From Candidatus Omnitrophota bacterium (GTDB lineage Bacteria; Omnitrophota; Gorgyraeia; Duberdicusellales; 4484-171): DNA of 64,000 bases. How positions within the stretch are numbered: position 1 is the first letter of the stretch; every line of letters begins with the position of its first letter. This document shows positions 38,798-63,214 of this stretch, in pieces. The notes beneath the pieces are model-generated. The model searched no databases, had not been told where the DNA came from, and saw only the letters and a program-made list of their open reading frames with translations. The stretch lies in the NCBI GenBank assembly GCA_037146775.1, contig JBAWWL010000002.1, positions 262,554-326,553 on the forward strand, given 5' to 3'. The translations under genes were made by a program, and so were the position numbers.

Positions 38798-39051
38798 ATA
38801 GTATGTAGTATAGAGTATATAGTTATATAGTGGGGAAATGACAAGCGTGAATGGTCATTCGCCTTGCCACACACTATTTACGATGTACGATATGCTACGT
38901 ATAGGGAAGGGGTCAAACCTCAAAACTAAAGAATAAAGATTAAAGTGCTGATGAGCGGTAACGTTTTAAAATCAAATATTAAATATTAAATAGCAAATAT
39001 TAAAGTTGAGACCAAGATAGGGAAAAGGGAAAATTAAAAAAAGGAGAGGAG
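38798..39051. repeat. intergenic repeat block (AGTAnnn 7-mer array; shared GGGGTCAAACCTCAAAACTAAA segment; A/G-rich tract)
   Basis: Shares the >20-nt GGGGTCAAACCTCAAAACTAAA string with 40052-40075. Confidence 0.7.
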
Positions 39052-40023
39052 ATGGGGAAGCAAAAAGTCAAAAAAGTTTTAGTCTGCGGAGCGGGAGGGT
39101 TTATTGCAAGTCACTTGGTAAAAAGGCTGAAAAAAGAAGGGTTTTGGGTGAGAGGGGTGGATATAAAATACCCGGAATTTTCTAAAACGCACGCTGATGA
39201 ATTCTTACGTTTAGATTTGCGCGAGAAGAAAAATGCTGACAAAGCCTTAAAACTGAAGACAGGAAATTTTGATGATGTTTATCAGTTGGCCGCGGATATG
39301 GGTGGAATGGGATTTATTCATTCGGCAGAATGTGAAATTATGCGTAACAACGCATTTATAAACTTGAATATGATTGATTCTGCGTCTAAGAGTGGAATAA
39401 AACGCTATTTCTTTTCTTCTTCGGTCTGCATTTATCGGGATATGAAGATAGGCGAACCGGAGTTGACCGAAGAGCAAGCTTATCCGGCATTGCCAGATAA
39501 TGAATATGGCTGGGAGAAGCTTTATGCTGAGCGTACGGCGTTAACATATGGCAGGAAGTGTGGTTTTAAGGTGCGTATTGCCCGTTTTCAAAACTGCTAT
39601 GGCCCGGAAGGCACCTGGCAGGGAGGAAGAGAAAAAGCTCCGGCAGCCTTGTGTCGTAAAGTCGCCCAGGCGAAAGATGGCGGAACCGTTGAAGTGTGGG
39701 GTAATGGTACGGCTGTACGCTCTTATACTTATGTTGAGGATATGCTTGAAGGTATTAGGCGGCTAGTTGAGTCAGATTTAGAGGGGCCTACTAACATTGG
39801 TTCGCCAGAATATGTTTCGGTGAAGGAGCTGGTTGATACGGTAGCTAAAGTCTCCGGAAAAAAATTTACTATTAAATGGATAGAAGGGCCGGTTGGCGTG
39901 CAATCTAGGAATTTCAGCAATAAGAAAATCTATTCCACCGGTTGGCGTTCGAAGTTTTCTTTGGAAGAAGGAATTAGGCAAACTTATCTATGGATAGAGA
40001 AACAAGTGAAGGATAGTAGATAG
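39052..40023 (+). CDS. NAD-dependent epimerase/dehydratase family protein
   Basis: KVLVCGAGGFIASHLVKRL Rossmann motif; AGGAGAGGAG RBS upstream. Confidence 0.75.
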   Translation: MGKQKVKKVLVCGAGGFIASHLVKRLKKEGFWVRGVDIKYPEFSKTHADEFLRLDLREKKNADKALKLKTGNFDDVYQLAADMGGMGFIHSAECEIMRNNAFINLNMIDSASKSGIKRYFFSSSVCIYRDMKIGEPELTEEQAYPALPDNEYGWEKLYAERTALTYGRKCGFKVRIARFQNCYGPEGTWQGGREKAPAALCRKVAQAKDGGTVEVWGNGTAVRSYTYVEDMLEGIRRLVESDLEGPTNIGSPEYVSVKELVDTVAKVSGKKFTIKWIEGPVGVQSRNFSNKKIYSTGWRSKFSLEEGIRQTYLWIEKQVKDSR

Positions 40024-40345
40024 TCGTGAGTATGTAGTATTGAGTAGAGAGGGGAGGGGTCAAACCTCAAAACTAAAAACTAAAAATTAAAGTGATACCA
40101 AACGGTGACGGTCGCTCGCCTCGATTCGTTCGGCGAAGCGGGCGACGCTCGTTTCGGATTACGTATAAAGGCAACGTACATAGTATAGCGTATATAGTTA
40201 GGGAGAAAGTATGTAGTACAGAGTACATAGTATATCGTGGTGGCAGAAGAAAAATTTAAATATATTTTGTATACTCCGCTACATGCTATGTATGATATAC
40301 AACATACCATGGACGATATACGACATACAATAAAAACTTAAAAGT
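40024..40345. repeat. intergenic composite repeat (AGTAnnn arrays flanking a GC-rich core)
   Basis: Core CGCTCGCCTCGATTCGTTCGGCGAAGCGGGCGACGCTCGTTTCGGATTACGT at about 40115-40166 is about 90% identical to the cores at 56445-56500 and 57570-57625. Confidence 0.7.
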
Positions 40346-40708
40346 ATGCTAAAACACATCACAATCGGAATATTTATACCTTATTGCATCTTTTTATTCT
40401 TTTATATTAAAAATGGCTTTAGGGTGGATAGCAGAAAGTTGGCCAGATTACCGTTTCTTCTTTTATTGTGCGCCATTTGGAGTTTTATGCCAAGCATCTT
40501 AAGCAAACTGCATTTATGGCCGTTAAGTGCGATCGCTAATAACTTTTATATCAGCAATATTTTTTTCTTCTACGGAATATTACGTAAAATCGGTCATAGT
40601 GGTTCTACTTTCGGGTTGGGCGTGGTTCTATGTATCTTTTTTTCTCTCGCGATTATCTATGCGAGGTATTTACGAGCGCAGGAGCGAGAAATTAGCAATA
40701 GTATATAG
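40346..40708 (+). CDS. small membrane protein, paralogue of the N-terminal domain of the ORF at 41211..42389
   Basis: RKLARLPFLLLLCAIWSFMP...FFFYGIL...AIIYARYLRA aligns with KRLTARLLFVTVIFMMFCALWAVIP...FFFHGFL...AIYAMFFLM in the downstream gene; embedded in a repeat block, so coding status is uncertain. Confidence 0.3.
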   Translation: MLKHITIGIFIPYCIFLFFYIKNGFRVDSRKLARLPFLLLLCAIWSFMPSILSKLHLWPLSAIANNFYISNIFFFYGILRKIGHSGSTFGLGVVLCIFFSLAIIYARYLRAQEREISNSI

Positions 40709-40788
40709 TATGTCGTACATAGTACATAGGGGGCAGTACAGCATATATAGCATGTAGTATATAGTCGGGTAACAAGAAGGAAAAAAGA

Positions 40789-41151
40789 GTGGAAGAGAAG
40801 ATAAAAACTTTTAAGGATCTAAGAATCTGGCAAAAGGCGATGGAGATCGTTAAAGATATTTACCAGGTAACCAACTCTTTTCCAAAAGAAGAGCTTTATG
40901 GTTTAACATCCCAGATGCGAAGATGTGCGGTGTCTCTTGCTTCGAATATTGCCGAGGGTTTTAAGAGATATCACAATAAAGAGTACAAACAATTTCTACA
41001 TATTATGTTAGGATCTGCGGCTGAATTAGAAACGCAGCTACTAATATCAGAAGAACTTAGATACATTAACAAGGAAGAAACGGAAAAAATATGTGAGAAA
41101 TTAGAGCATCTTTCGAGGATGACCACAGTTCTTATCCGTAAGCTTAAGTAA
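40789..41151 (+). CDS. four-helix-bundle protein (23S rRNA intervening-sequence protein family)
   Basis: 120 aa; DLRIWQKAMEIVKDIYQVT...SQMRRCAVSLASNIAEGF is the family signature; GTG start with a GAAGGA RBS. Confidence 0.65.
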   Translation: MEEKIKTFKDLRIWQKAMEIVKDIYQVTNSFPKEELYGLTSQMRRCAVSLASNIAEGFKRYHNKEYKQFLHIMLGSAAELETQLLISEELRYINKEETEKICEKLEHLSRMTTVLIRKLK

Positions 41152-41210
41152 CTTTTCACTATATACGATATACTATTTACAATGTACATTTATAAAAGGA
41201 ATTAAATAAG

Positions 41211-42389
41211 ATGTCTTTACCATCAGCGCATGTAGCAGTGGGTATGGGGGTACCGTTTCTGGCGGGGTTAGCCAGATTTCTGGCGACAAAACGCCTAACA
41301 GCCAGGCTTTTGTTTGTTACGGTAATCTTTATGATGTTTTGTGCGCTCTGGGCGGTTATTCCTGATATACCGCAAATGCTGCCAAAAGAGTTTCAGCATT
41401 GGGAATCAAAAATTATGCATTCAGGTTATGCTGATGTATTTTTCTTCCACGGTTTTTTAGATGAGCACAATAGCGAGGATAGGGGCCTGCTTGAGGGAGC
41501 CATGGCAATATACGCCATGTTTTTTCTTATGCTCTTTGCTTCGGCTAAAACCGTGCGCGATAATCAGAAAAAAATAGATAGAATGAAAGGTAATCCTTCG
41601 TCACCTACGGTCTTGGATTCGCTTGAAAAGATGAGTCATAAAGACATGGTCGATATCCATTGCCATATATTGCCAGGAGTTGATGATGGCCCGGATACAA
41701 TAGAGGATTCGCTTGCGATGTGTAGAAGACTACATGAGTTGGGAGTGGTGCATATTGTGGCTACTCCGCATCTACCCTGGAGAGAAAAATATGAGGTAGA
41801 TAAAATAACTGCCGCGTATAATTTATTAAAAGATGCACTTGTAAAAGAGAATATTGCGATAGAGCTTTCTCTGGGCGCAGATATCAGGATAAGCTGGGAT
41901 TTGATAGAGAGGTTAAAAAATGGATCTCTGCTTACTTTAGCCAAGGGCCGATATTTTCTTTTAGAATTAGATGATTTCACTGTCCCGCCAGGATTAGAGG
42001 ATTTCATCAAACGTTGCAATAAGGAAGGTTTTTATCCGGTGCTTACACATCCGGAGAGAAATGTTTTATTTTGTTCAGATTATGAAAGAATAAGAAAGAT
42101 TGCACAACTCCCAGTATTAATCCAAATTAGTTCTTGCAGCTTGGTCGGTTCTTTAGGTGCTGCAGCGAAAAGAGCGGCTATGGATTGGCTTAAACTTGAT
42201 TTAGTAGATGTGATGGCTTCGGATGCGCATGCGGTGAATATGCGGTTAGAAGAATTTAATAAAGGTTTATTTGCGGCACAAAAGATCACAGACCGTAAGC
42301 GACTTGAGGATTTGGTCATTGCTACGCCTTCAGCTATCGTACAAAATAAGGAGATTGAAGTAATAAAGAGAAATATAAAAAGTACATAG
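41211..42389 (+). CDS. membrane-anchored CpsB/CapC-type PHP-family protein-tyrosine phosphatase
   Basis: C-terminal MVDIHCHILPGVDDGPDTIEDSLAMCRRL...VATPHL is the PHP metal-binding motif of CpsB-like phosphatases; N-terminal about 130 aa with 3-4 TM helices. Confidence 0.65.
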   Translation: MSLPSAHVAVGMGVPFLAGLARFLATKRLTARLLFVTVIFMMFCALWAVIPDIPQMLPKEFQHWESKIMHSGYADVFFFHGFLDEHNSEDRGLLEGAMAIYAMFFLMLFASAKTVRDNQKKIDRMKGNPSSPTVLDSLEKMSHKDMVDIHCHILPGVDDGPDTIEDSLAMCRRLHELGVVHIVATPHLPWREKYEVDKITAAYNLLKDALVKENIAIELSLGADIRISWDLIERLKNGSLLTLAKGRYFLLELDDFTVPPGLEDFIKRCNKEGFYPVLTHPERNVLFCSDYERIRKIAQLPVLIQISSCSLVGSLGAAAKRAAMDWLKLDLVDVMASDAHAVNMRLEEFNKGLFAAQKITDRKRLEDLVIATPSAIVQNKEIEVIKRNIKST

Positions 42390-42519
42390 TATGTCGTACA
42401 TTGTACATAGTACAAATAAACCCTAAACACTAAACTCTAAATCCTAAATAAATTCAAAATCACAAACTAGAAATTTCAAACTTAAAACAAGATTATTGCA
42501 TATTGGAGGTAGTAAATAT
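42390..42519. repeat. intergenic repeat block (AGTAnnn then YYCTAAA 7-mer arrays)
   Basis: tacatagtatgtcgtacattgtacatagtacaaataaaccctaaacactaaactctaaatcctaaataaattcaaaatcacaaac. Confidence 0.65.
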
Positions 42520-43263
42520 ATGAAGAATAAAAGCTGTTATAGCTATGGATGGGTGCCGGATGTGCCGGATCAGAGGGATTTTTTGTATAAGGCGATTAAG
42601 CCAATAGTGCGGATAAAGAAAAAAGTTGATTTAAGGCATTATTGCTCTGCTGTGGAAGTTCAGGGGCAGTTAGGTAGCTGTACAGCGCAGGCTTTGGCAG
42701 GGAGTTTAGAGTTTTTGGATAATAAAGATGGCACGTATGTGGATGTAAGCCGGCTATTTATCTATTATAATGAGCGAGTGTTGATTAACGCGGTTGAATA
42801 TGATTCAGGAGCGTCGTTACGAGACGGAATAAAAACATTAAAGAATGACGGAGCATGTGAAGAGAGGCTTTGGCCATATATCATTAGCAAGTTTGATCAT
42901 AAACCATCGCTTAAGTGTTATAAAGAGGCAAAGGAGCATAGAATTGTTTCATATCACCGCTTAAGAGGTATACCGGAGATGTTAGCGTGTTTAAGTGAAG
43001 GGTATCCGTTTGTGTTCGGCTTTACGGTTTATGAGAGTTTTGAGAGCGAGAAAGTGACCGAGACAGGTGTGGTACAGATGCCTGGTAAAGATGAAGTCGC
43101 GCTTAGCGGGCACGCGGTGATGGCCGTAGGGTATTCGCAGGCGGATAAGCGGTTCCTGGTAAGGAATTCTTGGGGGGCCGGATGGGGTGTGGATGGGTAC
43201 TTTACTATGCCGTTTAAGTATTTAGAGACGTTGGCAGGAGATTTTTGGACAATCAGAAAATAA
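42520..43263 (+). CDS. papain-like (C1 family) cysteine peptidase
   Basis: QGQLGSCTAQALAG (catalytic Cys), GHAVMAVGY (His), NSWGAGWGVDGYF (Asn/Trp); ATG at 42520 with GGAGG at 42505. Confidence 0.7.
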   Translation: MKNKSCYSYGWVPDVPDQRDFLYKAIKPIVRIKKKVDLRHYCSAVEVQGQLGSCTAQALAGSLEFLDNKDGTYVDVSRLFIYYNERVLINAVEYDSGASLRDGIKTLKNDGACEERLWPYIISKFDHKPSLKCYKEAKEHRIVSYHRLRGIPEMLACLSEGYPFVFGFTVYESFESEKVTETGVVQMPGKDEVALSGHAVMAVGYSQADKRFLVRNSWGAGWGVDGYFTMPFKYLETLAGDFWTIRK

Positions 43264-43399
43264 TTAGGTTGATATGTTGATAGGTTAATAGGTTGTCAGG
43301 TTATTATGTTGATAAGTTAATAGGCGACAAGGGATGGGAAGGGAAAAAGCAAAAATCAAAACGAAAAAGGTAAAACGAATTAAAGTAGAAAGTTAAAAA
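43264..43399. repeat. intergenic repeat block (eight ATAGGTTG-type 8-mers then a purine-rich tract)
   Basis: ATAGGTTG ATATGTTG ATAGGTTA ATAGGTTG TCAGGTTA TTATGTTG ATAAGTTA ATAGGCGA. Confidence 0.7.
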
Positions 43400-43431
43400 G
43401 TTTTTTGAATACTCCTGACTCGGCTGAATAT

Positions 43432-43493
43432 GCGGAAAATTCTAATGAGACTTGCCCGATTTTATCGGGCTTAGGCGAATTATAATTTTCCGC
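43432..43493 (+). ncRNA. nested stem-loop; candidate structured RNA within a 945-bp ORF-free gap
   Basis: Outer stem GCGGAAAATT/AATTTTCCGC (43432-43441 and 43484-43493) enclosing GCCCGAT-ttt-ATCGGGC (43454-43470). Confidence 0.3.
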
Positions 43494-43680
43494 AACCTCG
43501 TCGGAGTAATCTTTGGCGCATCAATCTCTCGGTTGTTCCTGGAATGTTCTGCTGGGTTACCCCACAGGGTGCCCTGGTGAGTTGAGGGCCGAGGATCTAT
43601 GCGCGTCGATTAAAATAAATCTGCGAGAAGCTGCTAAATAGGGAACTAATTTCCTACCAGAAGAGTCTAATTTGTATAGT

Positions 43681-43990
43681 ACATAGTCGTGAGTATTATA
43701 TAGGTTAATAGGTTATTATGTTGATATGTTGATAGGCTATTTAATAAGGGGCTATTAGAAAAGTGGTAAAAAAGGGACAGGAAGGGGTGGAAAGGGTTAG
43801 GAAGGGGAGGGAAGATTAACGAATTAAATAATTAAAGAATTAACGGATTAAGATATTAACGAACTAACGAATTAAGAGATTAACGAATGAACTGATTAAG
43901 ATAAAAAAGGAAAAAATTAAATATCAAAAACATTCCGTTAATCGTTGAACGGTGGCGATGCTCGTTTCGGTTGCGTTAATCGTCAATCGG
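43681..43990. repeat. intergenic repeat block (AGTAnnn, ATAGGTTG, GGAAGGG and 12 ATTAAnnn units, then a partial GC core)
   Basis: 8-nt period ATTAA+NNN repeated 12 times at about 43807-43900; GGCGATGCTCGTTTCGGTTGCGTT at about 43954. Confidence 0.7.
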
Positions 43991-44145
43991 CTTTATTTTT
44001 TATGATATTTATGACTCAACCGTTATACGCGGGACGATACGAGCCGCGCCTGCCTCGCCGGCAAGGCGGGTAACCGCTCAACGCATAACGAGGTATTTTT
44101 CATAAACACTTGTCTATCAATCGATTATATAAAATATTACTTAAA

Positions 44146-44165
44146 TAACAACTTTTAAGTTGTTA
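44146..44165 (+). promoter_or_regulatory. perfect palindrome TAACAACTT-tt-AAGTTGTTA, candidate operator
   Basis: 9-bp arms with a 2-bp spacer, 5 bp upstream of the predicted -35 of the AbiEii-like gene. Confidence 0.5.
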
Positions 44166-44170
44166 AATAC

Positions 44171-44199
44171 TTGACAATACAACTTATATAGTGTAAATT
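44171..44199 (+). promoter_or_regulatory. sigma-70-like promoter (TTGACA-17-TAAATT) for the AbiEii-like/HTH pair
   Basis: TTGACA at 44171-44176 and TAAATT at 44194-44199; ATG at 44209. Confidence 0.45.
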
Positions 44200-44208
44200 A
44201 TAAGTGCT

Positions 44209-44931
44209 ATGGAAGGCAAGAGAATGGTGCAATATCAGCAAAGTGTATTAAAAGCCTTATCTAATAAGGTAAACGATTTTTATCTTGTCGGAGGTACGGC
44301 GCTTAGCCTTTTTTATTTTCAACATAGACTATCCGTAGATTTGGATTTTTTTACGCCTAAATTATCGTTTGCGAGAGTAAAAGAGATAGTTGATTACCTG
44401 CAAAAGGCTTTGGAATGTAAAGAAATCAAACTAATAGCGCAGAACCTTGAAAAAGATAAGACAAAAATGCTTATCTATAATATTAATTTTTCTACCGCCG
44501 ATATATTGAAAATTGATTTTGTAGAAGATGTTTTTGAACTAATAACAGAAGTTAAGACTGTTGACGGTATTAGAGTGTTATCATTGGAAGACATCTACAT
44601 CAGAAAGATATATGCGGTTTGCGGTAATATCGAAATAGAGGATGATGTCGGGCGCAAAAATTTTATTGGCGGGAGAGTCGCCGCGAAGGATTTCTACGAT
44701 CTTTATTTTCTTTCTCATGTTTTTATGCCGTTGTCTGGTTTTGCGCAAAAACATTGCGACGCGGCAACAAAAGAGTCTTTAATTCGCTGGTTTAAAATGT
44801 ATGACAGGATGACCATGGTTGACGGAATTTTACAAATCGATACGGAAAAAAATGTAAATGCTAAAAGTATCGAGAAACATTTTGCTAAAGAAGTTGGAAA
44901 GATTATCGAGCAGCAAATAGGTGAAATATGA
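44209..44931 (+). CDS. nucleotidyltransferase, AbiEii/AbiGii toxin-like
   Basis: FYLVGGTALSLFYFQHRLSVDLDFF matches the GGTAL...S.D.DF minimal nucleotidyltransferase signature of the AbiEii family. Confidence 0.55.
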   Translation: MEGKRMVQYQQSVLKALSNKVNDFYLVGGTALSLFYFQHRLSVDLDFFTPKLSFARVKEIVDYLQKALECKEIKLIAQNLEKDKTKMLIYNINFSTADILKIDFVEDVFELITEVKTVDGIRVLSLEDIYIRKIYAVCGNIEIEDDVGRKNFIGGRVAAKDFYDLYFLSHVFMPLSGFAQKHCDAATKESLIRWFKMYDRMTMVDGILQIDTEKNVNAKSIEKHFAKEVGKIIEQQIGEI

Positions 44932-45449
44932 AAAACAATTGGTTGTGGGACATGAAAGTAAACGAAGCAGAAGTAAAGGCAGCACTTAAAGACCCCACAC
45001 ATAAAGATTTTTTACGTTTTGCGGCTTTACTCCTTGCGCGGAATAATGAACCAAAACAGGTATTCAGTGAATATCTTGATCCGCTTGTCTTCTGTAAATA
45101 TTGGCAAGGTATTAAACGCCGGATGCGTGAAGATAAATGGGTTCAGGGAAGGATAATCTTTTGGCAGGCGATATATGACAGTTTAAAGGAGAAGTATCGC
45201 GCTAGAGGAATAATCTTTAAAAAAGAGCCTGTACCTGAAAAAAACCATCTGTGCAAAGAAGTTGGTGACAAGGTCAGCGCTTTACGCCACAGCCAGCATT
45301 TATCACAAAAAGGATTAGCAGAAAAAATGGGTATTTCCCAACAGTTAATTTCACGTATTGAAAAAGGAAGAGAGAACGTTTCTTTATCTACTTTGGATAA
45401 TGTTGCGCGTGCCTTGGGGAAGAAAGTAGAAATTAGCATGAACGTTTAG
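44928..45449 (+). CDS. XRE-family helix-turn-helix protein (putative cognate partner/antitoxin)
   Basis: C-terminal LSQKGLAEKMGISQQLISRIEKGRENVSLSTLDNVARALG is an HTH_3 motif; ATGA start/stop overlap with the upstream gene. Confidence 0.6.
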   Translation: MKNNWLWDMKVNEAEVKAALKDPTHKDFLRFAALLLARNNEPKQVFSEYLDPLVFCKYWQGIKRRMREDKWVQGRIIFWQAIYDSLKEKYRARGIIFKKEPVPEKNHLCKEVGDKVSALRHSQHLSQKGLAEKMGISQQLISRIEKGRENVSLSTLDNVARALGKKVEISMNV

Positions 45450-45620
45450 TAGAGAGTATGTCGTACGTAGTATGTAGTCGTGAGTATTGAGAGAAAGTAT
45501 ATAGTATGTAGTACATGGTATATAGTGGGGGATGGAATCGGTGGACGGTAACGGTTACATTAGAAATATTAAAAATCAAAATGACATAGTCGATAGTATA
45601 TAGTATATCGTATATAGCTG
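45450..45620. repeat. intergenic repeat block (AGTAnnn arrays around GGACGGTAACGGTTAC)
   Basis: The CGGTAACGGTTAC string also occurs at 17008-17020. Confidence 0.6.
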
Positions 45621-45745
45621 TGAATATAAGCCAGCTAATTTAGATTGCGCTTGTCTGGACATATTTTTGGTATTAAAATAGAAAAGAAGTAGTAAAAATT
45701 ATATAAAAGTTAAGAAGTAAGGTTGTTAAGGAAGAAGGGTAAGGA

Positions 45746-50130: not shown

Positions 50131-50850
50131 ATGAAACAAACGATACAGTCCGCGCTTATTTGGGCGATGAGCATCACCCTGACCTTTTTATTGTTTTTGG
50201 CAATGGCATTTTTTTCAATCATTCTTTATCCTTTTGACCGAAAGCGTAAAATCGCGCACGCCCAATGTTATTGGTGGTCTGATTTTCTATCGGCTTTTAA
50301 TCCTTATTGGAAGGTGACAGTGAGCGGCCTTGAAAATATCGATCATCATAAGATATACGTGGTGGTGTCAAACCATCAGAGCCTCGCTGATATTATCTTG
50401 ATGTACCAAACGAAAATGCAGTTTAAGTGGGTAGCCAAGGAGAGTCTTTTTAAAATTCCGATTTTGGGATGGAATATGATGCTGGCCAAACACATTCGGC
50501 TTAGGCGGGGAGATTTTTCCAGCATCAAGAAAACCTACCGGGAAGCCGGACAGTGGTTGCGTGACGGCATATCGGTAGTATTTTTTCCGGAAGGGACCAG
50601 AAGCAATATTGATGAGATGGGAGCTTTCCAGAATGGAGCATTCAAGCTTGCCATAAAAGAGAAAGTACCGATTTTACCTGTGATGATAGAGGGAACCAGA
50701 AACGCTATTCCCAAAGGAAGCTGGCGTTTTACTAACAAAAGTTCCTGCGCCGTAAGAGTGTTGGCCCCGATAGAAACCACTGGTTTTCTTCCCGGGGATT
50801 TTGCCCGCTTAAGGGATTTGACCAGGAATCAACTTGGGGGCATAAAATAG
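50131..50850 (+). CDS. 1-acyl-sn-glycerol-3-phosphate acyltransferase family (PlsC-like LPLAT)
   Basis: VVVSNHQSLADI (HX4D block) and FFPEGTRS. Confidence 0.7.
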   Translation: MKQTIQSALIWAMSITLTFLLFLAMAFFSIILYPFDRKRKIAHAQCYWWSDFLSAFNPYWKVTVSGLENIDHHKIYVVVSNHQSLADIILMYQTKMQFKWVAKESLFKIPILGWNMMLAKHIRLRRGDFSSIKKTYREAGQWLRDGISVVFFPEGTRSNIDEMGAFQNGAFKLAIKEKVPILPVMIEGTRNAIPKGSWRFTNKSSCAVRVLAPIETTGFLPGDFARLRDLTRNQLGGIK

Positions 50851-51120
50851 TACATAGTACAAATAAACTCTAAACTCTAAATCCTAAATAAACTCAAAAC
50901 GAAAAACTCAAAATTATAAATAATACTGTTTTGAGTTTGGAATATTTGGGTTTAGGATTTGTTTAGGGTTTAGGATCTCGGGTTTAGAGTTTGTCATAAA
51001 ACGTTGCCGATAGACGTAACCGTTTTCCGAGCCCCAACTATCTACTATGTACTACATACTCAATACTACATACTTTCTCCATATACTCAATACTCACGGC
51101 TATATACGACATACTATTCC
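50848..51120 (-). repeat. composite palindromic repeat element, reverse orientation (copy C)
   Basis: 50992-51021 is the exact reverse complement of 57613-57642 (30/30); the terminal arm at 51040-51115 is about 95% identical to the reverse complement of 57483-57550. Confidence 0.8.
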
Positions 51121-51121
51121 A

Positions 51122-51150
51122 TTGACAGATTTAAAATAGGGTGTATAATG
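51122..51150 (+). promoter_or_regulatory. near-consensus sigma-70 promoter (TTGACA-17-TATAAT) upstream of the csp gene
   Basis: TTGACA at 51122-51127 and TATAAT at 51145-51150. Confidence 0.6.
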
Positions 51151-51342: not shown

Positions 51343-51546
51343 ATGCATACAGGAAAAATTAAAAAGTTAGTAAGAGAAAGAGGTTTTGGATTTATTAGCG
51401 ATACAGACGGTAGTGAAGTGTTTTTCCACCAGAGCAGCCTTGCTGATGTACAGTTTGGCTCTTTACAGGAAGACCAACAGGTTACTTTTGAAGTCGAGAA
51501 ATCGCCTAAAGGCCCTCGCGCTATCAATGTAAGTCTCGCGAAATAA
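51343..51546 (+). CDS. cold-shock protein (CspA family)
   Basis: GKIKKLVRERGFGFI (RNP1) and VFFHQS (RNP2); 67 aa. Confidence 0.85.
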   Translation: MHTGKIKKLVRERGFGFISDTDGSEVFFHQSSLADVQFGSLQEDQQVTFEVEKSPKGPRAINVSLAK

Positions 51547-54934: not shown

Positions 54935-55120
54935 AGAGTAGTATATAGTATAGAGTACATAGTAGGGGGAAAAATTAACGAATTAAATAATTAAAGAATT
55001 AACGGATTAAAGAAGAAAGGGGCAGGAAGGAAAAAGAAAAGTAAAAAGTTAAAAGGCAAAAGTAAAAAAGTATAAATTAAGATAGGGAAAAATTAAAAGT
55101 AAAAAACAAGGAGGATTATT
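54935..55120. repeat. intergenic repeat block (AGTAnnn, ATTAAnnn, purine-rich AAAAGTn)
   Basis: gagtagagagtagtatatagtatagagtacatagta...attaacgaattaaataattaaagaattaacggattaaag... Confidence 0.65.
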
Positions 55121-56380: not shown

Positions 56381-56690
56381 GGATAGTACAGAGTACAGCG
56401 TACATAGTACATCGTGGGGCGTGGGGCAAGATTCGTTAAGCGGTTACTCGCCTCAGCTTTTGCTTCAGCGAAGTGGGCGAAACTCGTTTCGGTTACGTCT
56501 AACGGCTTATGATAAACTCTAAATCCGAAACCCTAAACTCTAAACAAATCCTAAACCCAAATATTCCAAACTCAAAACAGTATCGTTTTGAGTTTTGAGT
56601 TTTTCGTTTTGAGTTTATTTAGGGTTTCAAGTTTAGTGTTTAGAGTTTATTTGTATTGTATAAGACATACTGTATATAGCAATGTCACTA
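56381..56690 (+). repeat. composite palindromic repeat element, forward orientation (copy A)
   Basis: Order: AGTAnnn array, GC-rich core, YYCTAAA array, central hairpin CAAAACagtatcGTTTTG, TTTAGRR array, reverse AGTAnnn-type arm; the 31-bp GGGCAAGATTCGTTAAGCGGTTACTCGCCTC is identical to 57549-57579. Confidence 0.8.
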
Positions 56691-56801
56691 TACTTCAAAA
56701 CAAAAATCATTCTTCTAAAATTCTTAAATAGGAAAGTTCTTTCCTTAAAATTTCTGCAAAAAATAACGAATCCTTTAAAATTACATATCCAGGGCTATAC
56801 C

Positions 56802-57485
56802 ATGGAAGATCTGATAAAGAAATACGCGCCCGGAAAATCATTCGTTGATATCGGATCGTTATGGGCCATAAACGGGTATTTTTCTTTTCTTGCAGAAAGT
56901 TGCGGCGCGCGACGTGTGATTGCAGTAGATATCTTAACTGAAACTGAAGAATTCAGGCAGGCAAAACGACAAAAAAATTCCAAGGTTGAATTTATCTGTG
57001 GCGATATCCATCTTCCGGAGACAACTCAAAAAATCGGCACCTGCGATGTGGTGTTTTGCTCCGGCGTCCTTTACCACAGCCCAAACCCGCTACATCTAAT
57101 AATGATGCTACGCTCAATATGTCGAGAAACGCTGATATTAAAAACCCAACTGATTCCCGAAGTGCCGGGAATAAAAAACGCTGCGGTTTTCTATCCTTTT
57201 CTCGATAAAAAACAAAGAAAGCTTTACGATAGGGGGGCAGGTATCCAGAAAGCTATCACCGAAGACTACGATCCTAAAAGCGGATATGGAAATTGGTTTT
57301 GGGGGCCTTCCCCAAGTTGCGTGAAGTCAATGCTTGAGTGTGCGGGCTTTACGATTGAAAAAAGCTATCTCAACCCTTTTCACGGCTGTTTTATTTGCAA
57401 AACCGCTCCTGTTAAGTTTATGCCGGTATCTGGAGAGCTTGCGCCGGACTATAACCAACCAAAGCCTTACAAACACAGTCAATAG
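56802..57485 (+). CDS. hypothetical protein, class I methyltransferase-like
   Basis: FVDIGSLWAINGYF...RRVIAVD...FCSGVLYH resemble methyltransferase motifs I-III; ATG at 56802; the ORF-track start at 56682 lies inside a repeat element. Confidence 0.35.
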   Translation: MEDLIKKYAPGKSFVDIGSLWAINGYFSFLAESCGARRVIAVDILTETEEFRQAKRQKNSKVEFICGDIHLPETTQKIGTCDVVFCSGVLYHSPNPLHLIMMLRSICRETLILKTQLIPEVPGIKNAAVFYPFLDKKQRKLYDRGAGIQKAITEDYDPKSGYGNWFWGPSPSCVKSMLECAGFTIEKSYLNPFHGCFICKTAPVKFMPVSGELAPDYNQPKPYKHSQ

Positions 57486-57815
57486 TATATAGTCGTGAGT
57501 ATTGAGTATATGGAGAAAGTATGTAGTATTGAGTATATAGTACATAGTAGGGCAAGATTCGTTAAGCGGTTACTCGCCTCGATTCGCTCGGCGAAGTGGG
57601 CGAAACTCGTTTCGGTTACGTCTATCGGCAACGTTTTATGACAAACTCTAAACCCGAAATCCTAAACCCTAAACAAACTATAAATCACAATTCTTCAAAC
57701 TCAAAACGGTATAGTTTGTGATTTTGAGCTTTTCGTTTTGAGTTTATTTAGGATTTAGAGTTTAGTGTTTAGGGTTTATTTATACTATATACAATATACG
57801 ACATACCACATACTT
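57483..57815 (+). repeat. composite palindromic repeat element, forward orientation (copy B)
   Basis: Same module order as copy A; starts at the TAG stop of the upstream gene. Confidence 0.8.
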
Positions 57816-58785: not shown

Positions 58786-60165
58786 ATGAGATTATTTTCT
58801 AAAAAAATCACCGCATTGGCGCGCGAAAGCTGGGCGATGAGCTGGCCCATGATTTTGATCATGTTTTTTGAATTTCTGATAGGCTTGGCCGATGTCTACG
58901 TTGCGGGCAAGGTCGGTAAAGAAATACAAGCCGCCTATGGTCTGGCTTTTCAACTTTATTTTGTCGGGCTCATTCCTGCCATGGCTTTAACCGCAGGAAC
59001 GGTTTCGGTGGTGTCAAAATTGTTTACTGCTCCGCAAGCTCTAAAGCCGTCCGAGCATGATGCTGTTATTGGGGAGAACGAGGAATTAAAAGAAACAGTA
59101 TTTTCTTCTCTCGCATCAAGCACTCTTATGGGTGTTATCGTGGGCGCTCTCGTTATTATGCTCAGTTCGGCGATCATAGGGTTATTGCGCGTTCCCGCAA
59201 TTATTAAAAACGATAGCGCCGCACTTGTAAGAATTTATAGCCTGGGATTTATTTTCGATTATTTTTTGATCAACGCAAACGGTATTTTGCGCGCGTGTGG
59301 TAAGGTTAAGATATCGCTGCGTAATTATACAATAATATGTCTTTTAAATATTGTACTTAATTTTGTTCTTGTGTTTGCCACCCCGCTTGGATTTAGCGGT
59401 ATCGCCATTGCTACCGTAATCAGCGTGGCCGTCGGCGCGCTTTTAAATGCCGTGGCGGTTAAGAATCTTTTGGGTGCGTGGCGATTTCGTTTCCGGGCAT
59501 TCAAAGAAATGGTCGCAATCGGCTGGCCGATCGGGCTCTTGCAGATTCTCTGGAATCTTGCGACTGTTGTTATTTTTTCCATTCTAGGGAGTTTACCGTC
59601 GAATAATATAGAATTGATCGCCGCTTTTACTAACGGTTTAAAAGTCGAAGCCGCTATTTTCCTCCCCGCGTTCGCGTTTAACTTAGCGAATGCCGTTGTT
59701 GTCGGGAATCTTCTGGGTAAAGGGAAGAAGGACGATGCTTTCAAGTCCGGACTCGTTACCGCCGGCTTAGGTATGGCAATCATTGTGGTGCTTTCATTGG
59801 TTGTGATATTACAAGCGCGTAATATTATGACTTTTCTTTCCAATAATTCCATAGTCGTTAGTCAGGGGTTTACCTATCTTTATATTACCTTTGCTTTTGA
59901 GCCGTTTATGGCCTGGGGAGTTATTCTTGCCGGAGGATTAGCCGGAGCCGGCCACACTAAAAATATTTTAGCGGTTGTTGCGCTAAGTTTATGGATCATA
60001 AAAATACCGTTTTGTTACCTTGCGGGAGTTGTGTGGGGCATGGGCGCGGTAGGTATGTGGTGGGCGATGAATTTGGCAATTGTCTTTCAGGCTGTCTTGA
60101 TGAGCTGGTACTATTTTAAAAAAATGCGGCCAGTGGCAAAAGTAATACAGGTATGTAGTACATAG
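58786..60165 (+). CDS. MATE/MOP-superfamily membrane transporter
   Basis: 459 aa with about 12 TM helices as two 6-TM halves. Confidence 0.5.
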   Translation: MRLFSKKITALARESWAMSWPMILIMFFEFLIGLADVYVAGKVGKEIQAAYGLAFQLYFVGLIPAMALTAGTVSVVSKLFTAPQALKPSEHDAVIGENEELKETVFSSLASSTLMGVIVGALVIMLSSAIIGLLRVPAIIKNDSAALVRIYSLGFIFDYFLINANGILRACGKVKISLRNYTIICLLNIVLNFVLVFATPLGFSGIAIATVISVAVGALLNAVAVKNLLGAWRFRFRAFKEMVAIGWPIGLLQILWNLATVVIFSILGSLPSNNIELIAAFTNGLKVEAAIFLPAFAFNLANAVVVGNLLGKGKKDDAFKSGLVTAGLGMAIIVVLSLVVILQARNIMTFLSNNSIVVSQGFTYLYITFAFEPFMAWGVILAGGLAGAGHTKNILAVVALSLWIIKIPFCYLAGVVWGMGAVGMWWAMNLAIVFQAVLMSWYYFKKMRPVAKVIQVCST

Positions 60166-60465
60166 TATGTAGTATATAGTGGGGAGTAAGGATTAACGGA
60201 TTAAAGAATTAAATGATTAACTAATTAAGAAATTAACGCATTAAATAATTAACGAGCTAACGGATTAAGAAATTAACTAATTAAAGAATTATTTGGGGAA
60301 AGAATATAGGTTGATAGGTTAGTATGTTGATAGGTTAGTAGGCAGGAAGGGTCAGAAAAATAAAATATTAAAAATTAAAATAAAAATAAGGGGTAGAAAA
60401 GGACAGAAAGGGAAGAGAAGGGAAAAAGTTAAAAGTCAAAAGTAAAAAACTGAAAAATAAACGCT
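60166..60465. repeat. intergenic repeat block (AGTAnnn, ATTAAnnn, GGTTGATAGGTTAGTA, GGA-rich, AAAAGTn)
   Basis: AAAAGTT AAAAGTC AAAAGTA AAAAACT GAAAAAT at 60421-60455. Confidence 0.65.
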
Positions 60466-60975: not shown

Positions 60976-61053
60976 TGACCAATAGTTTTGTGGAAGTCGT
61001 GATATGGGGTGGAAGATTCTTAAACTGTATGTGTTTCGAGCGAGCATGATTCT

Positions 61054-62052
61054 ATGACACGCTATTATCTTGATATCGATAATCGTTTTGTAATCAAAAA
61101 AGATAGACAGAAGCTTTATCCCCGAGGAAAGTTTGTTATCGATACACAAAACAAGTTATCGTATATCATCTTGGAGCCTATTTCTTGGCGCAGAAAAGAA
61201 ACAGTATCTAAAAAAATAACTTTTGAAGGCACGTGGTCTTTAGACGAGAATCATACTGTTGTATTTACTTTACATCACACACGCAAACAGCCAGAAGGCG
61301 GGCAATTTTATTTTACGTCGGAATTGATTGATACACGTTCCGACGCGCTCATTTTCTCGTTAGCCACAAAAGAGCAGCCTGGAGTGTCTACTATTCGGCT
61401 TTTACAATTACAAGGGAGATGGCAGGCCGATCAATATAACCGCTTAAGTTTTCTGGTCAAAAAAACCGGTTTGCAATATGATACGCTCACTTTTGCAGCT
61501 GCCTGGGAATTGGACAGGAACAACACGCTTGTTTATACCTACAAGAAGACGTATCTTAAGACAAAAGAGCGCATAGAGAAAACGTTAGTTTTTAAAGGAT
61601 TCTGGCAGATTGGCGAGAAGGATCGTCTTTGTTACGCCCTTGATATCGAACAAAATTCATATTTTTCTTTTAAGGTTGCCTACGAGACTCCGAGCATACT
61701 GGCGAAAAAAGGTGAGATTAAGTATCGCTTGGGTGTGGGGGTTAGAGGGGAACGTTTATTCCGTGCGAAAGTTATTACTATTTACGGTGTATGGAAGTTA
61801 AGCAGAAAGATAGGATTGTCTTTCGAGGTCGACTACGGTCATGGAGTTCGGGAAATCGTCTTTGGCGCGCAGCTCGAGTTAGTTAAAGGAAACCAGGTTA
61901 CTTTTGAATTGACCAGCCAAGAAGGAAACAGCCTGGGCTTGCGCATTACGTTTAGCAAGTCTTTTCTGCGTAATAACGCTCAATGGTTTTTGCGCTTTAG
62001 CCAGCGGGACAAAGAATCTCGTGTTGAGGGTGGGGTAGATATTGCATGGTAG
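61054..62052 (+). CDS. hypothetical protein with about five internal 45-50-aa beta-rich repeats
   Basis: Recurrent h-x-G-x-W-x-L/I-x4-6-L-x-F/Y blocks: TFEGTWSLDENHTVVFTL, TFAAAWELDRNNTLVYTY, VFKGFWQIGEKDRLCYAL, TIYGVWKLSRKIGLSFEV. Confidence 0.4.
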   Translation: MTRYYLDIDNRFVIKKDRQKLYPRGKFVIDTQNKLSYIILEPISWRRKETVSKKITFEGTWSLDENHTVVFTLHHTRKQPEGGQFYFTSELIDTRSDALIFSLATKEQPGVSTIRLLQLQGRWQADQYNRLSFLVKKTGLQYDTLTFAAAWELDRNNTLVYTYKKTYLKTKERIEKTLVFKGFWQIGEKDRLCYALDIEQNSYFSFKVAYETPSILAKKGEIKYRLGVGVRGERLFRAKVITIYGVWKLSRKIGLSFEVDYGHGVREIVFGAQLELVKGNQVTFELTSQEGNSLGLRITFSKSFLRNNAQWFLRFSQRDKESRVEGGVDIAW

Positions 62053-62186
62053 AAGGGATTAAAGAATTAACGAATTAACTAATTAAAGAATTATTTGGGG
62101 AAAGAATATAGGTTGATAGGTTGGCATGTTGATAGGTTAGTAGGCTAAAGAATTAACTGATTAATGGATTAACCGATTAACGAATT
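62053..62186. repeat. intergenic repeat block (ATTAAnnn, GGTTGATAGGTT modules)
   Basis: attaaagaattaacgaattaactaattaaagaattatttggggaaagaatataggttgataggttggcatgttgataggttagtaggc is nearly identical to 60268-60340. Confidence 0.7.
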
Positions 62187-62795
62187 ATGGCTGATAATAT
62201 TATTTGCGAAAAATTTAAAGAGTGGACGAAGGATCTTGCGCCTAAAGAAGCCAGGATAGCTGTGTTTGAGCGTATACGTGATATTCCGTACGCAATCGTG
62301 CCGAAGCTAAGAGATCATTTTTCCGGCCCGGCTGGTATGTTGGAATTGAATAAAGGTTCGTGCCAACCGAAGCATTACTTATTAGCGCAATTTTTTGAAA
62401 AGTTAGGTATACCTATTCAATTGGCCACTTACGTTTTTAGATGGCAGGATTGCCCCGTAGCCTATCCATCTAAAATTAAACAATTAGTAGAACAGTTGCC
62501 TGTGGGGTATCATCTTGCTTGTAAGGCTTACATAGAGAAAAAGTGGGTCTTAGTTGATGCGACCTGGGATAAACCTCTTAAAGCATATGGTTTTAGTGTG
62601 AATGAGCATTGGGATGGTTTAAGCGCTACCGAGAATGCTGTGGTAGTTTTGGAAGAAATTACGCACAAGGATGCGGCAGATAGATGTAGCTACGAAACAC
62701 AGAAAAGAAGTGGTTATAGTGATAACGAAAAAGCATTGTATACTGAATTTATCGAACAATTTAATCAGTGGCTGGAGCAGATAAGGCGAAGCTAA
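62187..62795 (+). CDS. transglutaminase-like (papain-fold Cys-His-Asp) domain protein
   Basis: GSCQPKHYLLAQ (Cys), YHLACKAY (His), VLVDATWD (Asp), in the canonical order and spacing. Confidence 0.5.
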   Translation: MADNIICEKFKEWTKDLAPKEARIAVFERIRDIPYAIVPKLRDHFSGPAGMLELNKGSCQPKHYLLAQFFEKLGIPIQLATYVFRWQDCPVAYPSKIKQLVEQLPVGYHLACKAYIEKKWVLVDATWDKPLKAYGFSVNEHWDGLSATENAVVVLEEITHKDAADRCSYETQKRSGYSDNEKALYTEFIEQFNQWLEQIRRS

Positions 62796-63214
62796 TGTAT
62801 GTAGTATATAGTCGTGAGTATTGAGTATATGGAGAAAGTAGGTAGTATTGAGTACTGAGTATATAGGTGGGTTAGAAATGGGTAAAAAGGTTGGTATGTT
62901 GATAGGCTAAAGAATTAACGGATTAAAAAATTAAATCATTAAATAATTAACGAATTAACTGATTAATGAATTAACGCATTAAAGAATTAACTAATTATTG
63001 GGGGGAAAGGATATAGGTTGATAGGTTGGCATGTTGATAGGTTAGTAGGCAGGAAGGGATGAGACATTAACGGATTAAAAAATTAAATAATTAACGGATT
63101 ATTTGGGGAAAGGGGAGTAGGGGAAAGAGAAAAGTAAAAAGTTAAAAATAAAAAGGCAAAAATAGAAATCAAAATAGAGAAATATCAAAAATTAAAAAGA
63201 GAAGGAGGCAGATT
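62796..63214. repeat. intergenic repeat block (AGTAnnn, ATTAAnnn x2, GGTTGATAGGTT x2, purine-rich)
   Basis: Third copy of ...GGAAAGgATATAGGTTGATAGGTTGGCATGTTGATAGGTTAGTAGGCAGGAAGGG..., also at 60300-60350 and 62100-62150. Confidence 0.7.

Follow-up and report, generated by a model that had tools for sequence, protein, structure and literature searches.

Most long intergenic gaps in a Candidatus Omnitrophota genome window consist of degenerate tandem repeats of 7 and 8 bases that form two kinds of copied mosaic element

We analyzed a window of 64,000 nucleotides from a Candidatus Omnitrophota MAG and refer to its 4.8 kb of non-coding sequence after 38.8 kb as late intergenic DNA. Most long gaps in this DNA consist of degenerate 7- or 8-base tandem repeats, which group as two kinds of copied mosaic element, class I and class II (Table 1). 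An earlier note on the window had described six word families, and TRF output placed all six where they had been read by eye, with 65 to 85% matches within arrays. The note had also stated that every non-coding block parses into such words. This was too strong: arrays occur in 13 of the 19 spacers, and six short ones (≤143 nt) carry none. Also non-repetitive are 43396-43680, 43925-44208, and promoter/leader stretches.

Base-match autocorrelation of the late intergenic DNA gave a match rate of 0.412 at lag 7 (z = 19.9 versus shuffles) with further peaks at lags 14, 21, 8, 16, 24, and 32, while coding DNA showed period 3 only. The words occur at 4.8 to 7.3 per kb in late intergenic DNA versus 0.02 per kb in coding DNA (a 200- to 400-fold higher tandem-word density), and arrays of period 7 or 8 account for 34% of the bases in late intergenic DNA versus 0.28% elsewhere. 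The proposed three-letter alphabet was borne out, with C at 1.5 to 7% in families A, B, C, and D and G at 2.7% in family E. Sense-to-antisense word counts were 35:0 for B, 15:0 for C, 5:0 for D, and 6:0 for F; since all window genes lie on one strand, transcription polarity is inseparable here from replication polarity. In agreement with the earlier note, we found non-coding arrays that are restricted to intergenic DNA, tied to stop codons, and distinct from CRISPR. Its argument that they place stops in all three frames proved uninformative, as stop trinucleotides numbered 302 against 301 expected from base composition.

Table 1. Repeat arrays and mosaic elements of the late intergenic DNA (kcal/mol and z refer to predicted folds)
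Feature	Coordinates	Strand	Evidence and setting
A array AGTAnnn	57518-57549 (57483-57552 by eye)		TRF
B array ATTAAnnn	43815-43904		TRF, period 8, 9-11 copies
C array ATAGGTTG	43265-43324		TRF, 7.5 copies
AAACCCT array	57643-57674		TRF
TTTAGGG array	57747-57778		TRF
AAAAAGT array	60423-60448		TRF
G-rich period-10 block (F)	43771-43814		TRF
Small class I hairpin: A array, short GC hairpin, complementary A' array	38793..38905	+	from TAG of gene 37658-38797; -36.6 kcal/mol, z=-3.97
A-rich D-type leader arrays (TAAAGAA, TTAAATA, AGGGAAA)	38927..39050	+	TRF, sequence; up to Shine-Dalgarno + ATG 39052
A array, short AAAACTA array, GC-rich X module copy (40092-40169)	40021..40169	+	TRF, repeat family D16; A array at TAG of gene 39052-40023
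A/A' inverted heptamer arrays	40170..40335	+	hairpin ending 10 nt before ATG 40346; -43.2 kcal/mol, z=-3.57
A array over last codons + TAG of ORF 40346-40708	40698..40770	+	TRF, repeats I9, D19; A'-type partner 41156-41197, beyond IVP/bAvd-like gene 40789-41151
Half element: A array, then E array (TAAACYC)	42381..42482	+	TRF, repeats D11, I3; A array encodes last codons + TAG of gene 41211-42389
Class II segment: C array, G-rich F block, D array	43265..43395	+	TRF, composition; starts at TAA of gene 42496-43263
Class II mosaic A, C, F (G-tract run 43771-43814), B (43815-43904)	43675..43925	+	TRF, repeats, composition
A arrays 45450-45530 and 45585-45625	45450..45625	+	TRF, D13; first from TAG of gene 44928-45449
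Reverse class I composite A-E-loop-E'-X'-A'	50847..51125	-	repeats I1, I2, I4 (97% over 66 nt); starts at TAG of gene 50131-50850; z=-4.44
Class II spacer A-B-F-D	54935..55120	+	TAG of gene 54182-54934 to DEAD-box helicase Shine-Dalgarno site; C = 3.2%; predicted RNA structure essentially nil (MFE/nt -0.006)
Class I composite A-X-E-loop-E'-A'	56381..56681	+	repeats; whole helicase-stop-to-ATG 56682 gap; -93.3 kcal/mol, z=-4.68
Class I composite A-X-E-loop-E'-A'	57483..57815	+	repeats; starts at TAG of gene 56682-57485; -101 kcal/mol, z=-5.63
Class II spacer A-B-C-F-D	60151..60465	+	TRF, repeat D6, composition, fold; ends at ATG 60466; A array encodes last four codons + TAG of MATE transporter gene
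Class II spacer B-C-B	62053..62186	+	TAG of gene 61054-62052 to ATG 62187; repeat D6; 93% identical over 86 nt to 60258-60343
Class II spacer A-C-B-C-F-B-F-D	62796..63214	+	TAA of gene 62187-62795 to Shine-Dalgarno + ATG 63215; C = 4.5%; repeat D13, 88% over 75 nt

Short-read contigs end inside arrays, as might be expected if the arrays were chimeric low-complexity joins, an artefact that the earlier note had allowed for. However, the NCBI MAG contig, the Logan assembly of SRR12676968, and GCA_964613555.1 are identical over the arrays and flanking genes, apart from one 4-nt repeat-unit indel and one SNP across 6.4 kb, both inside the class I element 57483..57815, and gene order is unbroken across every array. 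Since three assemblies agree, the arrays are real. An origin in chimeric joins, contradicted by this agreement and by the continuous gene order, has in our view a negligible chance of being correct. The arrays are repeated enough to break assemblies.

A arrays adjoin or overlap the stops of all 10 genes for which this had been claimed, and of an eleventh ending at 40708. Nine of these 11 genes end in TAG, versus 11 of 48 other genes (Fisher p=0.0005), and three genes have array-encoded C-terminal codons. Class I elements sit directly on the stop codon: in many cases the TAG, and in some also the last two to five codons, belong to the element. They are imperfect palindromes of 110 to 330 nt with the architecture A-X-E-loop-E'-A', occur in both orientations, and are predicted to form long hairpins directly 3' of stops, folding well beyond shuffles (z from -3.6 to -5.6). 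The earlier dismissal of REP/BIME-like elements and hairpins could not be upheld, as half of the arrays are parts of these palindromes. Near-identical mosaic copies in both orientations imply behavior like that of BIME- or MITE-type repeats.

The class I palindromes might instead be primarily selected functional RNA structures: transcription terminators, 3'-end stabilizers, RNase III sites, or "ribosome termination structures." Besides the long hairpins running from the stop codon, strong promoter-like sites follow two elements, a sigma-70-like one (12/12) at 51122-51149, directly after the 50847..51125 composite, and another (10/12) at 57842, reached through a T run after 57815. An inner hairpin, 56568-56595, is terminator-like by score. 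Stable structures just 3' of stops are outlined by Chemla et al. (2020, PMC7518266), and transcribed inverted heptamer pairs occur at Xanthomonas stop codons (Rehm et al. 2015, PMC4692102). In a distant Omnitrophota genome (helicase 71% identical), the E-E' core reappears, once more at a gene end, with 78% identity over 144 nt, a conservation that fits function as well as mobility. However, promoter-like hits overall do not exceed shuffle expectation, and most class I copies have neither U tract nor GC-rich stem and thus are not canonical intrinsic terminators. Two hairpins directly abut the next start with no promoter between (56681/56682 and 40335/40346), which argues against obligatory termination. 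The fold comparison gave no consistent sense/antisense asymmetry, so RNA-level selection is not demonstrated; among six sequences, an underpowered set for covariation, there was one compensatory pair. Relatives lack class I elements. We regard a primarily RNA-structural role as possible, though rather unlikely.

Class II elements fill gaps between co-directional genes, from one gene's stop codon up to the ribosome-binding site of the next, in the module order A-B-C-F-D, with A first and D last, the end being an A-rich leader. They contain 3 to 6% C (versus 18.6% in coding DNA), have a fixed strand polarity, and are predicted to hold almost no RNA structure (MFE/nt -0.006 to -0.15 versus -0.228 ± 0.042 for coding DNA). 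In their C depletion and fixed module order, they look more ordered than neutral junk.

Replication slippage, one of the origins suggested earlier, does contribute. Periods of a higher order (14, 16, and 24 nt) give a better fit than the base one, a pattern that block duplication would produce (TRF matches of 79% at period 24 versus 71% at period 8 in 43815-43904, and of 93% at period 14 versus 78% at period 7 in 60151-60180), and a 4-nt indel separates assemblies. These features would suit purely local slippage, with each array arising in place without copying between loci, as would the report that, among the long simple sequence repeats of prokaryotes, heptamers are the most frequent (Mrazek 2007, as relayed in PMC4679880). 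Such an origin is contradicted by long-range unit order shared between loci: segments of 66 to 176 nt, and with them the unique X module, are found at several loci and in both orientations with 86 to 97% identity, their variant units following one non-trivial order. Dispersed copies match at 97% over 66 nt (reverse complement of 51042-51107 versus 57485-57550), 93% over 86 nt (60258 versus 62060), 88% over 75 nt (57483 versus 62802), and, in inverted orientation, 86% over 176 nt. We consider slippage alone highly improbable. Local slippage by itself does not account for the arrays; their mosaic element types have spread as copies from one gene junction to another. The window's own genome yielded no transposase, target-site duplication, or empty site.

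The closest helicase relatives (73 to 74% identity; one partly syntenic) have ordinary spacers and no arrays, nor were arrays present at three further Omnitrophota loci. The closest relatives make the conserved "genome-wide system" of the earlier note doubtful. Contigs of Atribacterota, a different phylum than that of the window genome, have the same stop-A-E-loop-E'-A'-start architecture, and there a 262-nt inverted-array element, with a TAG stop and the next Shine-Dalgarno site as its exact borders, is carried by some strains and missing from others with flanks 99.97% and 99.7% identical. The arrays turn over rapidly between relatives.

This turnover bears on whether the arrays are dedicated cis-regulatory punctuation, with A marking gene ends, D marking gene starts, and the word families acting as multi-site platforms for a sequence-specific RNA- or DNA-binding protein (cold-shock/S1/KH-type, CsrA-like, or a nucleoid protein). 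The positions fit, with A arrays at 11 stops, D arrays directly 5' of the Shine-Dalgarno site, and a structured ORF-less 285-nt segment bracketed by A and D like a gene; so do the strict strand polarity, the C depletion, and the similar A and E words in Atribacterota. S1, Csp, or CsrA binding has been proposed for TAACTGA heptamer repeats (MacGregor 2015, PMC4679880). Yet the closest relatives manage without arrays at comparable junctions, near-identical Atribacterota strains have a 24-nt spacer in place of a 286-nt array element, and other genomes (L079, L259) combine the same architecture with quite different word sets. The units are also degenerate (65 to 85% matches), and we found no candidate binding protein that only genomes with arrays encode; array-less relatives, too, have csp and DEAD-box genes. 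We think a punctuation system improbable.

Taken together, we lean toward a joint reading, with moderate confidence, in which class I and class II are dispersed, fast-evolving selfish or neutral repeat DNA, filtered at the RNA level and possibly co-opted as 3'-end hairpins, and the vocabulary is lineage-specific short-period tandem-repeat DNA of the LSSR/STRR type with a BIME/MITE-like side. Its starting points, namely, the arrays, mosaic copies, positions, composition, predicted folding, and turnover between relatives, were observed directly, while transposition or recombination and all RNA-level roles are what we infer. Judging from the sequence patterns, slippage or unequal recombination would amplify 7- and 8-nt units, which point mutation would then erode. 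A class I copy would land directly on a stop codon, in either orientation, and because it folds on itself it should disturb the stop-to-start junction little; it may then serve as a 3'-end hairpin for termination, transcript stabilization, or RNase III processing. Surviving class II elements would be only those variants harmless in a read-through transcript, that is, unstructured, C-poor, and ribosome-loading-friendly, and, being poor in C, they are probably poor Rho substrates.

The gap architecture is an extreme, little-described variant of repeat classes of cyanobacteria, Xanthomonas, and enterobacteria. REP/BIME, BOX, ERIC, Correia/NEMIS, and MITE repeats do not code for protein, are palindromic and modular, and are scattered in either orientation; they lie at gene 3' ends or separate genes that run in the same direction, interrupt assemblies, and vary in presence from strain to strain. 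The window elements resemble these mosaic repeats in being palindromic, modular, and dispersed, with 3'-end or co-directional placement. However, class I arms are tandem arrays of 7- to 8-nt words rather than one palindromic unit of 35 nt, class II is not palindromic at all, and no RAYT, transposase, or target-site duplication was seen for the window elements.

LSSR/STRR repeats, as described via PMC4679880 and PMC4692102, are tandem units of 5 to 11 nt, dominated by heptamers, strongly intergenic (Mrazek et al. 2007; Calothrix STRR1-3), and attributed to polymerase slippage. To the extent of those descriptions, they share with the window short tandem units, several word families per genome, and a sporadic phylogenetic distribution. 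In contrast, window units are degenerate (65 to 85% matches), families with period 8 stand out as much as those with period 7, and spacers are wholly tiled by several families in recurring order, packaged as copied mosaic elements. The GGGAATC and GGGGA(T/C)T heptamers of Xanthomonas and Nostoc, biased to within 0 to 50 bp of the stop or overlapping it (Rehm et al. 2015, PMC4692102), share the stop-codon bias, frequent convergent inverted stem-loop pairs, and length variation among close relatives. They are a G-rich, quadruplex-forming, single family, whereas the window has AT-rich A words, G tracts in F blocks only, and at least six families combined. The ribosome termination structure, outlined as a general and conserved stable mRNA structure directly 3' of stops (Chemla et al. 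2020, PMC7518266), is paralleled by the predicted class I structure immediately downstream of stop codons, but the class I hairpins are 110- to 330-nt repeats absent from close relatives. Finally, the TAACTGA intergenic direct repeats of marine Beggiatoaceae, some cyanobacteria, and Bacteroidetes (MacGregor 2015, PMC4679880) are likewise fixed-orientation heptamer arrays at gene boundaries with a patchy cross-phylum spread. They immediately precede start codons and take the place of the Shine-Dalgarno site, whereas the window D arrays precede a clear Shine-Dalgarno site and the best-defined family lies at stop codons.

Beyond 38.8 kb, TRF returned about 75 rows of short period, nearly all of them at 7 or 8 nt or at multiples of these (14, 16, and 24). 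This confirmed, at the coordinates claimed in the earlier note, the word families AGTAnnn (A), ATTAAnnn (B), ATAGGTTG (C), the A-rich leader AAAAGTn (D), TAAACYC (E), and a G-rich family (F); a prime denotes the complement. Across 4.8 kb of late intergenic DNA (beyond 38.8 kb), the lag-7 base-match rate was 0.412 (z = 19.9 against within-segment shuffles), with z of 6.4 at lag 8 and 9.2 at lag 16 and further peaks at lags 14, 21, 24, and 32, while the same analysis found period 3 alone in coding DNA. Tandem words (AGTAnnnAGTA, ATTAAVnnATTAA, etc.) occurred at 4.8 to 7.3 per kb in late intergenic DNA versus 0.02 per kb in coding DNA, a 200- to 400-fold enrichment, and period-7/8 arrays covered 34% of late intergenic bases and 0.28% of those elsewhere. 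Thus, the words are confined to intergenic DNA and carry a periodicity signal. The three-letter alphabet described in the earlier note also held: C makes up 1.5 to 7% of families A, B, C, and D, and family E is 2.7% G. Depletion of C on the sense strand was not general in array-rich spacers of other organisms. The claim that every noncoding block can be parsed into arrays was overstated, as arrays were absent from six short spacers and from several stretches of unique sequence. By the ORF map, the intergenic fraction is 2.0% in positions 1 to 38797 and 19.1% past 38797. The first part is a packed glycosyltransferase, methyltransferase, and polysaccharide-synthesis cluster of mostly lower GC (0.33 to 0.40) with no intergenic arrays, in sharp contrast with the remainder of the window.

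An assembly artifact was ruled out as the source of the arrays, since three assemblies agree across them. Logan contigs of SRR12676968 matched the window with zero mismatches, and their ends fall within arrays. Over 6.4 kb, a contig of GCA_964613555.1 (L128), a second assembly of this organism, differed from the window only by an indel of one 4-nt AAAC repeat unit and by a single SNP (~57670 and 57708), both within a class I element (a folded mosaic palindrome at a stop codon); this contig also starts and stops inside class I elements. The window genes are ordinary bacterial genes; the DEAD-box helicase is 100% identical to a protein of a Candidatus Omnitrophota MAG, and its close homologues are likewise all from Omnitrophota.

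All ten genes said to have an A array at or over the stop codon were correctly identified, and we added an eleventh, ending at 40708. In three genes (ends 40708, 42389, and 60165), the array encodes the last 2 to 5 codons. TAG was used by 9 of 11 array-contacted genes compared to 11 of 48 others (p = 0.0005). This enrichment fits an element landing beside TAG, and it also fits an array overwriting the 3' end of a gene and giving the first in-frame TAG. A metagenome tally gave 22 arrays with an ORF stop on the same strand and 4 with one on the opposite strand, a count skewed by the lack of stop codons on the antisense strand of A words. The point made of stop codons in all three frames was overstated, with 302 stop trinucleotides observed and 301 expected from composition. 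Given this agreement, we rejected a "stop-codon barrier" role.

Class I elements are imperfect palindromes with the order A array, GC-rich X module of ~80 nt, E array, loop, E' (GRGTTTA), and A'. There are at least five copies in 27 kb, with 86 to 97% identity and inverted arms of 35 to 90 nt. Their predicted hairpins are long and begin at the stop codon. Whole-element folds (n = 4) ranged from −36.6 kcal/mol for 123 nt to −101 kcal/mol for 361 nt. Over all five elements that were folded, z was −3.6 to −5.6, and none of the shuffles folded equally well. Comparison of sense and antisense folding, a G-U pair test for RNA-level selection, gave mixed signs. Covariation in the E-E' stem amounted to one compensatory pair in an underpowered set of six sequences that includes two near-duplicate pairs.

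Array-containing elements and spacers, by class
Class	Coordinates	Orientation	Following feature
Class I, full	56381-56681	forward	ends directly at next start codon, 56682
Class I, full	57483-57815	forward	T run, then promoter-like site 57842 (10/12)
Class I, full	50847-51125	reversed	promoter-like site 51122 (12/12)
Class I, full	L128:7690-7978	reversed	
Class I, smaller/partial	38793-38905		
Class I, smaller/partial	40170-40335		ends at next start codon, 40346
Class I, smaller/partial	42381-42482		
Class II spacer	54935-55120		
Class II spacer	60151-60465		
Class II spacer	62053-62186		
Class II spacer	62796-63214		
Class II-related segment	43265-43395		
Class II-related segment	43675-43925		

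The earlier note had set these repeats apart from CRISPR arrays, REP/BIME elements, and hairpin terminators, and the first of these exclusions stands, whereas hairpins should not have been dismissed. CRISPR arrays have identical 23- to 50-nt repeats with unique spacers of similar length, and we rejected a CRISPR array here on the basis of contiguous, degenerate units of 7 to 8 nt. Intrinsic terminators have a short stem, rich in GC, and a U tract after it. Class I stems are long and AT-rich, and we therefore rejected these elements as intrinsic (Rho-independent) terminators; among the copies, the sole terminator-like score was at 56568-56595 and the sole T run follows 57815. Promoter-like and terminator-like sites were no more numerous than shuffles predict, and we therefore cite single strong sites only. 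One, at 51122, is a perfect sigma-70-type promoter (TTGACA-16-TATAAT) directly after a class I element, with a leader of ~190 nt and then a cold-shock protein gene (51344-51546).

The X module, which contains CGAAACTCGTTTCGG, was found at 40092-40169, 43925-43990, 56416-56509, and 57553-57639, with its reverse complement near 50995-51035. It recurs within or beside class I elements, has small hairpins of its own, and is the sole nonperiodic part of the repeat family. The E/E' words (CCCTAAA/TTTAGGG and variants; 57643-57778 and 50864-50993) match the plant-type telomere repeat, which explains weak, spurious Rfam matches to plant MIR hairpin families. Rfam 15 gave no match in the window at gathering score, the subthreshold matches (E of 1 or less) were all to hairpin models of plant or viral miRNAs, and tRNA and tmRNA scans found nothing real.

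Class II spacers run from the stop codon to the following Shine-Dalgarno site. Family A comes first where present, B, C, and G-rich F come next in no set order, and A-rich D comes last. The B, C, D, and F words lie on the sense strand only (35:0, 15:0, 5:0, and 6:0, respectively). C content is 3 to 6%, compared to 18.6% in coding DNA, and predicted RNA structure is very weak, with an MFE per nucleotide of −0.006 to −0.15 versus −0.228 ± 0.042 in coding windows. Five G3-4 tracts at 43771-43814 (GGGACAGGAAGGGGTGGAAAGGGTTAGGAAGGGGAGGG) form a potential G-quadruplex, and other F blocks have fewer G tracts by eye. A general G-quadruplex role was rejected because four or more G runs occur at 43771-43814 only.

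Three further loci lie among the arrays. Positions 43396-43680 hold 285 nt of nonrepetitive, GC-richer DNA with a predicted fold of −97.3 kcal/mol (z = −4.65), no ORF longer than 42 amino acids, and no Rfam match, flanked as a gene would be by D arrays upstream and an A array downstream. Given this fold and setting, the segment may be a structured RNA. A 23S-rRNA-intervening-sequence protein/bAvd-like four-helix gene (40789-41151) has an A array (40698-40770) on one side and an A'-type array (41156-41197) on the other, a layout (40698-41197) resembling the stems that flank rRNA intervening sequences. At 44209-45449, genes for an AbiEii-type nucleotidyltransferase and a helix-turn-helix protein overlap in the manner of a toxin-antitoxin pair, with array-rich spacers on either side.

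Repeat finding identified segments of 66 to 176 nt that share the order of variant units between loci in both orientations. The reverse complement of 51042-51107 is 97% identical to 57485-57550 over 66 nt; the segments at 60258 and 62060 share 93% over 86 nt, those at 57483 and 62802 share 88% over 75 nt, and an inverted pair shares 86% over 176 nt. This shared long-range order, in both orientations, shows copying between loci. The arrays themselves would be generated by slippage or unequal exchange, as suggested by their degenerate units, by the repeat-unit indel between assemblies, and by the higher-order periods 14, 16, and 24, which fit the arrays better than the base period in TRF.

We compared the window with related genomes and other phyla. 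The closest helicase relatives (L251 and L252, 73 to 74% identity) have ordinary spacers without arrays; L252 is partly syntenic with the window (TolC-MFP-MacB and CSD-helicase). Arrays were also absent at three further Omnitrophota loci. In the distant Omnitrophica RBG_13_46_9, whose helicase is 71% identical, there is an E-loop-E' hairpin that is 78% identical over 144 nt and also overlaps a gene end. The architecture of the window, inverted arrays included, is seen with a different word set in L079, a further Omnitrophota contig. A metagenome scan with three AGTAYRT units returned many unrelated or eukaryote-like microsatellites, and only a subset was informative. One contig, L244 from Atribacterota, has stop-A-E-loop-E'-A'-Shine-Dalgarno elements in both orientations, and it has minus-strand genes.

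A second Atribacterota contig (L259, 21 kb) has an intergenic fraction of 23.8% and z of 15 at lag 7 and 14 at lag 8. GGTTAGYT arrays lie after several of its stop codons and the complementary CTAACCAA arrays ahead of several of the starts that come next, so these spacers are able to form bracketed hairpins. Among Atribacterota strains with identical GalT protein, four contigs (L255 to L258) have a PFK-Mfd spacer of 24 nt and two (L253 and L254, 5058-5343) have one of 286 nt, and the flanks are 99.97% and 99.7% identical. The longer spacer owes its additional 262 nt to an inverted 8-mer-array element running exactly from the TAG stop to the Shine-Dalgarno site. In L259, a more distant strain, the arms are kept with a different core nested inside. 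This MITE-type presence/absence polymorphism was seen in Atribacterota only, for an analogous element.

A genome-contig scan with four ATTAAVNN units was too permissive and mostly found perfect 8-mer tandem repeats in Bacteroidota. These perfect arrays, e.g., nine units of ATTAACCC or 15 of ATTAAGTT (L074, L096, L108, L003, L012, L095, and L117, the last from Calditrichia), some of them just upstream of start codons (L074 and L012), are a separate VNTR-like phenomenon. Degenerate ATTAACGn/ATTAAAGn arrays closely resembling family B occur in contigs labeled "bacterium AUK088," Paceibacterota, and Shapirobacteria (L014 [452-528], L036, and L111); that of L014 occupies the whole stop-to-start spacer. 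Shared origin, convergence, and misbinning are possible explanations for these.

Absence in close relatives together with the Atribacterota strain polymorphism shows rapid turnover and dispensability. Combined with copying between loci, this leads us to read the arrays, from sequence comparison, as dispersed, fast-evolving repeat elements and not as a conserved regulatory system. The earlier interpretation, a genome-wide system of binding arrays, slippage products, or insulators, is thus supported in part; a conserved genome-wide system is made doubtful by the array-free relatives and the strain-level gain or loss. Surviving elements appear to be filtered by transcript tolerance, with self-folding palindromes kept at stop-to-start junctions and unstructured, C-poor, A-rich linkers kept where read-through transcription is probable. 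Plausible roles would be termination, RNase III processing, Rho avoidance, and ribosome loading. We think it unlikely that short-period word arrays form a "punctuation" common to several phyla of uncultivated anaerobes (Omnitrophota, Atribacterota, and perhaps others) and read by RNA-binding or processing factors. Inverted arrays would then bracket the whole spacer and fold the stop codon beside the start of the next gene, and distinct word families would control termination, cleavage, or reinitiation via such factors. The same low likelihood covers a new class of stop-codon-targeting mobile element, whose arms would be built by heptamer or octamer slippage.

The arrays have practical consequences: short-read assemblies break up at them in Omnitrophota and Atribacterota, and annotated genes owe to them their stop codons and sometimes their final codons. 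Full-text literature searches on Omnitrophota or Atribacter with repeats found no description of these arrays. The window is a richer case than the heptamer and octamer intergenic repeats of cyanobacteria, Xanthomonas, and Beggiatoaceae, which have been noticed for decades with no agreed function. It has at least six word families, each fixed in its placement around stop and start codons, and two contrasting mosaic types, one predicted to be strongly folded and the other unstructured and C depleted. Its architecture is found again in an unrelated phylum, with gain or loss visible among near-identical strains. These contrasts are testable by metatranscriptomics and reporter assays.

The pattern is striking, underdescribed, and cross-phylum, yet it has clear precedents. 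REP elements have a conserved palindromic unit of ~35 to 40 nt with a GTAG head and a cognate RAYT (Y1 transposase), and MITEs are small, noncoding, dispersed elements with terminal inverted repeats and a target-site duplication. The earlier note was wrong to dismiss REP/BIME-like elements: the A-X-E-E'-A' composite is a modular, palindromic mosaic found in either orientation at gene 3' ends, but its arms are heptamer arrays of 35 to 90 nt, and no single REP-like unit is present. Class I elements likewise resemble MITEs in being small, noncoding, and dispersed in several copies with terminal inverted repeats. We saw no clear target-site duplication at the window copies or at filled and empty Atribacterota sites, no RAYT among the window's proteins, and no transposase-like or otherwise suggestive protein among unannotated ORFs flanked by arrays. 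Long simple sequence repeats (LSSRs) and the STRR heptamers of cyanobacteria are among the closest descriptions. The window arrays share their head-to-tail units of 5 to 11 nt, array lengths beyond chance, and predominantly intergenic location; they depart from perfect or near-perfect units, with typical TRF matches of 65 to 85%. The TAACTGA repeats of Beggiatoaceae (PMC4679880) are also among the closest, as are the heptamers of Xanthomonas and Nostoc, which, like the window arrays, gather on or across stop codons and occur as inverted pairs in convergent orientation (PMC4692102).
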